Shown here one piece after another: positions 7,657-16,480 of a DNA stretch of 64,000 nucleotides (position 1 is its first letter; every line of letters starts with the position of its first letter). Source of the stretch: Felis catus (taxonomy: Eukaryota); NCBI RefSeq assembly GCF_018350175.1, contig NC_058368.1, positions 23,190,001 through 23,254,000 of the forward strand. The letters are read 5' to 3'. The position numbers and the translations under genes are program-made. The notes under the pieces are model-generated. The model made no database searches, was not told where the DNA came from, and saw nothing but the letters and a program-made list of their open reading frames with translations.

Positions 7657-7796
7657 CTAGAGATGATGACCTTTGTATGCTAACAGGTGATCTAAATCTT
7701 CTTTAAATGGATTGTAGCCTTGTTCCTTTAAACACCGCAGTGCGCAGAAAAGCTGGGCCAGTGGAGGAAATTCTTCCCAGGGAACCCATTCCCAAC
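7657..7796 (-). CDS. NUDT15: Nudix hydrolase 15, coding exon 3 (last)
   Basis: Acceptor tttcttttctag; encodes (S)[48 protein letters not shown]; 140 nt, phase matches exon 2. Confidence 0.96.
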
Positions 7797-9065
7797 CTAG
7801 AAAAGAAAGATACCAAATCAGTTTATTTAGCTGGAAGGAAACAAAGAATATTTATTTTGGCAAGTTAACCTATACTTCGAAAAAATTAATTAAATATAAA
7901 AATGACTTGCAACTAATAATAACATGCTACTAATCACAGTGATGCCATGCATTAGCTCAGCTGTACCAACATCATTTGCCTTTAGAATGAAGGTCTTAAC
8001 AGAAGGGGGATCATTTAAAACATGCTGTTATTTCAACATGAGACCAAGCTTACAAGGGCCCCATGATAGTAAAATCCAGATTTAAGAAAATTCAATTTTT
8101 GCTTGAATATTTGGCTGAACAAAACATACAGAACTTTACACATGACAGGTGGTAACACTACATGAAAACAAACCAGCTGCCCCACCTATAGAATAAGGTA
8201 AGTTACATTTCTAAGCTATCCTCCATCTTGTTAAAAAGTAATGGAAGCTGTGCAGAGAATAAAAATATTCTCTGGCTGTGGTACACTTTAGATAGAAAGA
8301 CAATATGGATGGGACTGATTTTCAAAAATCCATTGAAAAAGGAAAGATTTAACAGTATCTATTGTGAAATACACAAAATCCTAGAAAAATGCTCTAGGCA
8401 ACAGTATTCTCTTTGATGACTTAAATGTAAGGAACATGAAAGCACAGATGCTCATAACAGGTGAATATATAAATACTATATTACTAAGATGTACACTCCA
8501 TGTTCTAAGTTTCTTCATGGTCACACGCATATACTTATGTTTAAATGCAGTTTCTTCCACTAAGTGTTTCTCTGCCTGTAAGATACAGGTATGCAGTTTC
8601 ACTCTGGGACAGGGGACAAAGAATCCATGAAATTAGAACAAGTTCAGGAAGGAGTGATCAGCAACTGTGACCTAAGAGTCTAAGAGAAAGAGAGTAGGAC
8701 AGAAGGAGGGAGAAAGAAAGAGAGACAGAGAGAGAGAGAGGGAGAGAGGTGTCACCCAACAGTGTGTTGCAAGATGCGGAATTAACAGTCTCAAGGGAGC
8801 TGTCTGTAAAGTTTATCCTGTCTGCGAGAAAATGAAGCATCTGGCTGATCCTCCTGATTATAATTGGATGGCTGGAGAAAAGATGTCATAACCAGTAACC
8901 TGAAGCAGGTGATCCAGATCCAGGATCTGACAAACATGGGAGAGAAAATGCATCTTTATGCTATAAATAAAACCACCACCACAGAGCTGCTGCACCCTGG
9001 CTGTGGTGCAGCTGGCTACCCAGCAAGTGAAAATAACTCCTGCTATGTTGTCATGAAGGGCTAGA

Positions 9066-12474: not shown

Positions 12475-12671
12475 TTTCATTTTTTTCAGGCTCTGTGTTC
12501 TTTGGTTCTGAATCATAAGTCATGTCCACTTCCCCTTTCATTAGTATTGTCACATAATGGTAATTTTCTTTCTTATCAAAGGAATTCACGACTGAGGCAA
12601 AGCGAACATTTTTCAAGCGAAGAGCTGCTTCTTCCCAGGTTTCCCTTTGAGCACATTCTTCCCACGTTTCC
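12475..12671 (-). CDS. NUDT15: Nudix hydrolase 15, coding exon 2
   Basis: ttttccag acceptor and GTAAGA donor; 197 nt; encodes (G)[22 protein letters not shown]...EPEKNE, completing the Nudix box [24 protein letters not shown]. Confidence 0.97.
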
Positions 12672-16253: not shown

Positions 16254-16360
16254 CTCGGTGGTAGCTCACCCGAATTCCAAATGGCCCCCGGGGAGTTGAT
16301 AACTGCCTCGGTGGTTGCTCACCCGAATTCCAAATGGCCCCCGGGGAGTTGATAACTGCC
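16254..16360. repeat. 53-bp tandem duplication across the NUDT15 exon 1 / intron 1 junction
   Basis: Copies at 16254-16306 and 16307-16359 differ at one base (16263 a vs 16316 t). Confidence 0.95.
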
Positions 16361-16480
16361 GGCTCCTATAATCCCTTTCCTCTTCCCCAGGAGGACGCAA
16401 CGAGGATGCTTGCTGCTAGTCACCACTACTCCTACCGCGACTCCAAGCCGCCTACCCTGCGGCTCCGCGCGGGCCGTCAT
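16323..16480 (-). CDS. NUDT15: Nudix hydrolase 15, coding exon 1
   Basis: ATG at 16480; [52 protein letters not shown](G); donor GG|GTGAGC; 158+197+140=495 nt = 164 aa plus stop. Confidence 0.97.

Follow-up and report, generated by a model that had tools for sequence, protein, structure and literature searches.

Derived residues 132 and 136 of NUDT15 in the domestic cat: probably tolerated substitutions in an intact gene

The window analysed here, a stretch of 64,000 nucleotides of the Felis catus genome (NCBI RefSeq assembly GCF_018350175.1, contig NC_058368.1, positions 23,190,001 to 23,254,000), contains the coding exons of NUDT15 on its minus strand. NUDT15 is a Nudix nucleoside-triphosphate diphosphatase, and its best-known substrates are thiopurine nucleotides. 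It is a clinically used pharmacogene, and cats are notoriously intolerant of azathioprine. The features of the locus, numbered by window position, are as follows.

7657..7796, minus strand: NUDT15 exon 3 (last two bases of S119, W120-L164, and the stop codon at 7659-7657; AG acceptor at 7798-7797)
12475..12671, minus strand: NUDT15 exon 2 (third base of G53, E54-E118, and first base of S119; contains most of the Nudix box; AG and GT borders)
16323..16480, minus strand: coding part of NUDT15 exon 1 (from the ATG at 16480-16478 up to F52, plus bases one and two of G53; donor GT at 16322-16321)
7756..7758, minus strand: codon GCC for Ala132 (Asp in human and most vertebrates)
7744..7746, minus strand: codon TGC for Cys136 (Trp in the other tetrapods examined, except one Tyr row)
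7741..7743, minus strand: codon GCA for Ala137 (a common non-primate state, no novelty of the cat)
7735..7737, minus strand: codon CGG for Arg139 (conserved; the residue altered in the human R139C risk allele)
16254..16360, minus strand: 53-bp tandem duplication (2.0 copies, period 53, 98% matches, score 207) spanning the border of exon 1 and intron 1

Joining 16480..16323, 12671..12475, and 7796..7657 gives a coding sequence of 495 nt with GT-AG introns, i.e., a 164-codon frame with a single terminal stop, which agrees letter for letter with XP_003980425.1 (P0053), the RefSeq Felis catus NUDT15 isoform X3. The stop-to-stop open frame that holds exon 3 covers 7657..7851 on the minus strand, and exon 3 aligns with residues 120-164 of human NUDT15 PDB chains (5bon and others; E = 5.7e-22). 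Our scripted splice places the codons for Ala132, Cys136, and Ala137 exactly where the initial annotation had read them; the human counterpart that it gave for this stretch of the minus-strand reading, PPLDQLFWGLRC, is right and matches the same PDB chains. The entire cat protein aligns with human NUDT15 (5bon_A) without gaps, residues 1-164 on 1-164, with E = 7.7e-97 and 85% identity.

Like its human orthologue (MTH2; structures 5bon and 5lpg, variants 7b63-7b67), the cat gene has three exons. The Nudix box, the motif of the Nudix hydrolase superfamily that carries the metal-binding glutamates, is identical in the two species over all 24 residues (47-70), and the Pfam NUDIX profile (PF00293) matches residues 13-130 with 76.2 bits against a cut-off of 21.1. 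The intact frame, the gap-free human match, the NUDIX score, and the unchanged Nudix box together identify an intact cat orthologue of NUDT15; the locus is an ordinary, intact domestic cat gene. On cat chromosome A1, a published gene list has ITM2B, MED4, NUDT15, and SUCLA2 in this order (PMC10969784). In the literature searched we found no published description of feline NUDT15 residues, 'feline' and NUDT15 co-occurring only as a gene-list entry, and no measurements on the cat protein. An AlphaFold2 model of the cat protein built on a 27-row alignment (mean pLDDT 59.4, pTM 0.51) was too poor for use.

The distribution of the unusual residues was examined in two protein sets. A search with exon 3 returned 51 proteins at E <= 0.001 among 52 candidates, from which canonical isoforms were named by cluster look-up; 27 such named NUDT15 isoforms were aligned for the species pattern. 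A search with the full cat protein then enlarged the sample to 168 proteins, a count that includes isoforms and fragments. In the 27-row alignment, Ala132 together with Cys136 is found in Felis catus, Prionailurus (viverrinus/bengalensis), Lynx rufus, and Lynx canadensis, and Asp132 with Cys136 in Leopardus geoffroyi only. These five Cys136 rows are all complete 164-aa frames free of stops and frameshifts. The other 22 have Trp136 (Puma/Herpailurus, Acinonyx, four Panthera, meerkat, two hyenas, bear, seal, dog, pangolin, sheep, bat, beaver, lemur, human, two marsupials, turtle, and skink), with Asp132 in 20 of them, Asn in the seal, and Glu in the bat. Two further felids fit the pattern: Prionailurus iriomotensis has Ala132 and Cys136, and Neofelis has Asp132 and Trp136. 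As the same residues occur in the independently assembled genomes of Prionailurus and Lynx, they are not due to an assembly error or a chance reading in the cat.

Among the 168 proteins, position 136 is Trp in 135, Cys in 18 (15 felid rows, from Felis, Prionailurus, Leopardus, and Lynx, and three sharks), Leu in eight (six ray-finned fishes and two misaligned alternative isoforms), Ser in two (misaligned isoforms), Tyr in one, and a gap in four. Trp136 is present in 97 of the 106 near-full-length non-felid rows, the exceptions being fishes, sharks, the Tyr row, and one misaligned isoform. Position 132 is Asp in 127, Glu in 11, Ala in 11, Asn in six, Gln in five, Ser in three, and Arg in two; ten of the Ala132 rows are felid (Felis, Prionailurus, and Lynx only) and one is a misaligned isoform. 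The tetrapods examined outside the Cys136 cats thus keep Asp, Asn, Glu, Gln, or Ser at 132 and, but for the single Tyr row, Trp at 136, which bears out the initial annotation in regarding D132A and W136C as derived.

The third change that it had listed, G137A, turns out not to be a change of the cat at all. Position 137 is Ala in 108 of the 168 proteins, Gly in 29, and Pro in 22. Since Ala is the commonest residue here, Ala137 is ancestral for carnivores; it is the majority vertebrate state, and 'G137A' describes a difference on the primate side. The accompanying remark that this substitution is benign or ancestral agrees with these counts and with the Ala (Ala136) that the mouse has at the Gly137 position according to the available text of Rehling 2021 (PMC8079283). 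In total, nine of the 12 pocket residues named in the crystal papers (V16, R34, V38, Q44, L45, H49, Y90, T94, F135, W136, G137, and L138) are identical in the cat, and R34, Q44, L45, H49, Y90, T94, F135, L138, and R139 are all shared with human. The three that differ are V38I, W136C, and G137A. Both V38I and G137A are states known in other species (Ile38 in 18 of the 168 rows). Outside the A132/C136/A137 triplet, which is D/W/G in human, the cat protein differs from the human one by L12, A15, I37, I38, Y43, D85, K86, L157, and A158, among others.

A native Cys136 is also seen in the sharks Scyliorhinus, Rhincodon, and Cetorhinus (DQLFCPLAC), whose proteins are 62-65% identical to that of the cat and differ from it at residues 137 and 139, and ray-finned fishes have a native Leu136. 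Trp136 therefore does not appear to be a family-defining residue; assuming that these orthologues are active, the family works without it. Cys139, the residue responsible for thiopurine toxicity in humans, is native in 20 of the 168 proteins, mostly from frogs and lizards, and Ala139 in 14, mostly from fishes. Hence R139C is a context-dependent defect, and the whole turn and helix start in this region evolve in a context-dependent manner.

Within the cat family, the changes can be ordered by how widely they are shared. R24K, A85D, W136C, and G158A are common to Felis, Prionailurus, Leopardus, and Lynx; D132A to Felis, Prionailurus, and Lynx; P12L and G15A to Felis, Prionailurus, and Leopardus; V38I to Felis and Prionailurus; and E86K to Felis and Leopardus. 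T37I and V157L are private to Felis, and the private replacements of each Cys136-bearing protein number 0-4. In contrast, Puma, Panthera, and the hyenas keep P12, G15, R24, A/V85, D132, W136, and G158, which we refer to as the ancestral felid type. Their proteins have the same length as the cat protein, with 93% identity to it in Puma and in all but one of the four Panthera rows (P. leo, 92%), and 90% in the hyenas.

In a maximum-likelihood protein tree of 19 rows, the five Cys136 rows form a group with support 100/97, the stem of which measures 0.032. The felid stem itself is 0.019 long, and below it no other inner felid branch exceeds 0.006. A Tajima relative-rate comparison of Felis with Puma/Herpailurus, with hyena as the outgroup, gave 9:0 replacements (chi-square 9.0, p = 0.0027); other pairings gave 10:0 to 6:2, all of them sharing the stem changes and thus being non-independent. 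Protein evolution on the Cys136 haplotype is accelerated, and this acceleration is unlike what strict neutrality would lead one to expect for a conserved gene.

The haplotype (K24, D85, C136, and A158) is common to Leopardus, Lynx, Prionailurus, and Felis but absent from Puma/Herpailurus and Acinonyx. Such a distribution contradicts the nuclear species tree, in which, according to the available text of Li 2016 (PMC4691742), the Puma lineage is sister to the clade of the leopard-cat and domestic-cat lineages and the Ocelot lineage is more basal. In AU tests with groups that were taken from the published tree but named after the alignment had been seen, a clade of Felis, Prionailurus, Puma/Herpailurus, and Acinonyx was rejected (p = 0.005), and the same clade with Lynx added was weakly rejected (p = 0.043). 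Tree-discordant sites are found in all three exons, approximately 9 kb apart. The simplest reading of these patterns is that the puma lineage would have retained the ancestral haplotype through lineage sorting or introgression. The NUDT15 locus is a clear case of conflict between a gene tree and the felid species tree.

What the pocket residues do in the human enzyme is described in several structural studies. In the available text of Rehling 2021 (PMC8079283), the main-chain nitrogens of Gly137 and Leu138 form hydrogen bonds with ligands, hydrophobic support comes from Leu45 and Phe135, and Trp136 packs with Val38 and Phe135 on the indole of the inhibitor. The corresponding part of Carter 2015 (PMC4532830) places Trp136 and Gly137 at the base of the pocket, in the positions of Asp119 and Asp120 of MTH1. 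The earlier statement that residues 135-138 line the pocket is thus well founded. Binding of acyclovir monophosphate moves Trp136 by 3.2 A into the ribose space (Nishii 2021, PMC8263746, available text), and a molecular dynamics preprint (10.1101/2022.10.23.513377) describes, in the text available, Trp136 as a hub that touches Val38, Ile85, Glu86, Glu88, Tyr90, and Phe135.

The role given to Asp132 is a different matter. The initial annotation had regarded an ion pair between Arg139 and Asp132 as the contact that is lost in R139C, and the available part of the same preprint attributes such a pair to Valerie 2016. However, its own simulations have the R139-D132 side-chain contact occupied only 15% of the time in the apo form and 1.8% in the holo form. 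In the available text of PMC8079283, Asp132 does not occur, and Arg139 draws the 3-10 turn onto helix alpha-2 through bonds with the main-chain oxygens of Leu131 and Leu134. Contacts of this kind are independent of the side chain at residue 132. The human R139C allele affects the same region of helix alpha-2 and 3-10 turn as the cat changes, but the cat retains Arg139.

Experimental scores for the individual substitutions are available from the human deep mutational scan of Suiter 2020 (MaveDB 00000055), which we took second-hand from a table in the supplement of PMC13732479. On its scale nonsense variants score about 0 and the wild type about 1, and 'concordant-resistant' means that both scores exceed 0.7; the scan scores substitutions one at a time on the human background, with one drug phenotype, that of thiopurines. 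The bioRxiv text of the study makes no mention of residues 132 and 136. The scores of the substitutions concerned, and of R139C as a control, are listed below.

D132A: abundance 0.79, function 0.88, classed wild-type-like
W136C: abundance 1.00, function 0.93, classed wild-type-like
G137A: abundance 0.98, function 0.63
P12L: abundance 0.83, function 1.26
G15A: abundance 0.98, function 0.53
S37I: abundance 0.98, function 1.12
V38I: abundance 0.99, function 1.06
F43Y: abundance 1.16, function 1.63
I85D: abundance 1.22, function 0.84
E86K: abundance 1.03, function 1.01
V157L: abundance 1.02, function 0.86
G158A: abundance 0.90, function 0.69
R139C (control): abundance 0.15, function 0.76

The destabilisation that had been expected from the loss of Asp132 and Trp136 is not borne out in the human background, in which R139C lowers abundance to 0.15 and neither cat substitution comes near that value. 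Of the 18 measured substitutions of Trp136, none falls below 0.74 in abundance or below 0.57 in function, and 15 are wild-type-like, including those to Pro, Asp, and Glu. Charge reversal at position 132 leaves the protein wild-type-like as well (abundance and function of 0.94 and 1.22 for D132K and of 0.93 and 1.06 for D132R), as do polar and small replacements; only Ile, Leu, Val, Phe, and Met cause abundance to collapse to 0.05-0.26. As D132K and D132R behave like the wild type, an R139-D132 salt bridge is not critical, and the scan corrects the idea that this ion pair is essential. The remaining cat-lineage changes all have abundance of at least 0.83 and function of at least 0.53. In summary, what the initial annotation had observed was confirmed, and its interpretation held with respect to the derived state of the two residues, the lining of the pocket, and the benign or ancestral nature of G137A, but not with respect to destabilisation or the ion pair.

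We consider it probable that cat NUDT15 is a functional enzyme with old, lineage-specific substitutions that are tolerated. In the mechanism that we propose, residues 135-138, at the N-terminus of helix alpha-2, form the floor of the nucleobase pocket, and the ligand is reported to be held by the main-chain NH groups of 137 and 138 and by the side chain of Phe135. The cat has kept all of these, and likewise Arg139, the other ligand residues, and the Nudix box. Trp136 would serve as a mobile lid or hub that packs on loop 1 (Val38) and loop 2 (Ile85, Glu86, Glu88, and Tyr90), and Asp132 would lie on the exposed 3-10 turn before the helix. On the haplotype shared by the small cats, Trp136 may have been replaced by Cys first and Asp132 by Ala later, and these replacements would be near-neutral or at most a modest retuning of the lid, with neither inactivation nor gross destabilisation. 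This account is supported by the intact gene, the old changes retained in complete proteins, the scan scores, the sharks and fishes that do without Trp136, and the main-chain contacts of Arg139. Stability and activity of the complete cat protein are inferred from these lines of evidence. Points against the account are the accelerated protein change on the Cys136 haplotype, the combination of about 11 lineage changes in the cat, of which G15A (0.53), G137A (0.63), and G158A (0.69) have intermediate function scores, and the AlphaMissense rating of W136C as pathogenic (0.72).

What also speaks against tolerance is the conservation of Trp136 in tetrapods. The residue is kept in the non-felid tetrapods, the Tyr row apart, and yet all 18 of its replacements are tolerated with respect to abundance and thiopurine detoxification. 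A residue that is conserved but dispensable for thiopurine handling hints at constraint by another function, and such a function outside the thiopurine assay may constrain Trp136. The cat, as a natural Trp136-to-Cys enzyme, provides a ready-made probe for whatever function this is.

The same observation lends some weight to another explanation, namely that W136C and the other changes on its branch (A85D, R24K, and G158A), followed by D132A, V38I, and E86K, altered the substrate preference or kinetics of the enzyme by retuning its lid over the ribose and base, possibly under positive selection, with the fold kept. This seems unlikely to us, though a changed specificity is the one part of the inference in the initial annotation that still stands. 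Four replacements fall on one short internal branch, the stem of the Cys136 rows, which is long beside the other inner felid branches and the felid stem, and the relative-rate counts (9:0 to 6:2) point in the same direction. Three of the ten other cat-lineage changes (at 38, 85, and 86) lie within the six Trp136 contacts named in the available text of the molecular dynamics preprint, an overlap with a hypergeometric p = 0.003; the displacement of Trp136 by acyclovir monophosphate would also be in keeping with a role of the lid. In addition, MTH1 (NUDT1), which has the same Nudix fold, binds 8-oxo-dGMP through D119 and D120, i.e., the W136 and G137 positions, and these residues set its specificity (PMC4532830, available text). 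MTH1 is nevertheless another family member with another specificity, and the cat protein is clearly NUDT15.

Against such retuning stands the variability of the sites involved. Among the 164 positions, ranked by variability across vertebrates on the 106 of 168 rows that were kept, 24, 37, 38, 85, 86, and 157 occupy ranks 136-157 and are highly variable, so low constraint can explain the clustering of changes; the conserved positions hit in the cat lineage are P12 (rank 16), G15 (rank 64), and W136 (rank 72). We therefore do not take the overlap as evidence of compensatory co-evolution around Trp136, since the contact positions concerned rank 146-157 of 164. A more specific version, in which a derived haplotype (W136C, R24K, A85D, G158A, and later D132A) arose once, remodelled the Trp136 lid, by which loops 1 and 2 close over the ribose, and changed which nucleotides or nucleotide analogues are cleared, and is now carried by the ocelot, lynx, leopard-cat, and domestic-cat lineages with the puma lineage still ancestral, strikes us as quite unlikely. 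As the haplotype pattern contradicts the nuclear species tree, this version needs a long-lived polymorphism or the introgression of a functionally distinct allele. If it were true, small cats would differ from big cats and people in their handling of thiopurines or acyclic guanosine antivirals through NUDT15, in addition to TPMT.

W136C also creates a Cys-x3-Cys pair, C136/C140 (codons at 7746-7744 and 7734-7732), on one face of helix alpha-2. The pair is present in the sharks as well, and the hyenas and the meerkat have lost C140. A redox or metal site formed by these residues (i, i+4) was considered and set aside as pure speculation.

Loss of Asp132 and Trp136 might also have left the cat with an unstable or hypomorphic enzyme that adds to its azathioprine sensitivity. 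Cats are indeed unusually sensitive to this drug, but a review, in its available part, credits low TPMT only (PMC6327590). Such a defect would gain plausibility from the R139-D132 ion pair cited from Valerie 2016 in the preprint, from the abundance of D132A, which at 0.79 is the lower of the two, and from the collapse caused by Ile, Leu, Val, Phe, or Met at 132, by which the site is evidently not inert. We nonetheless regard it as very improbable: both substitutions are wild-type-like, charge reversal at 132 is tolerated, the crystal structures put the contacts of Arg139 on main-chain atoms (PMC8079283, available text), and the changes persist in four genera on intact proteins, with Cys136 being native in sharks. 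Neither of the two pocket changes does harm by itself in the human scan, which is a reason not to bring NUDT15 into the explanation of azathioprine intolerance without data.

A similar but still less probable idea is that constraint on the gene is relaxed in small cats, as an early stage of decay, and that the domestic cat is further affected by the duplicated donor of exon 1. The 53-bp duplication repeats the final 38 bases of exon 1 together with 15 bases at the start of the intron, the GT donor among them. Its copies differ at one of 53 bases (intron +7), so that the donor junction is identical from -8 to +6. Use of the second donor GT (16269-16268), 53 nt downstream, adds 53 nt and leads to a stop at codon 54. 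The RefSeq cat model uses the first, upstream donor, and the UniRef cat model P0001 is spliced at the second, beginning with a shifted-frame peptide that ends exactly there. Although P0001 and the accelerated replacement in the Cys136 clade would be compatible with decay, the five canonical Cys136 proteins are all complete 164-aa frames, each lineage has added only 0-4 private changes after the burst on the stem, the Nudix box and the catalytic residues are unchanged, and RefSeq models the canonical donor. An artefact, be it an assembly error, a private polymorphism, a paralogue, or a retrocopy, can practically be dismissed, as the same residues stand in the RefSeq proteins of five species, each with its own assembly, and the locus has three exons with introns; no evidence for an artefact was found.

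One further feature of the locus lies between exons 2 and 3, where an in-frame cassette of 32 residues is found on the minus strand at approximately 10.5-10.8 kb. It corresponds to the insert GMYLSGHQPP...SINSG that several felids have in a predicted 196-aa 'isoform X1', and it would interrupt the Nudix fold.
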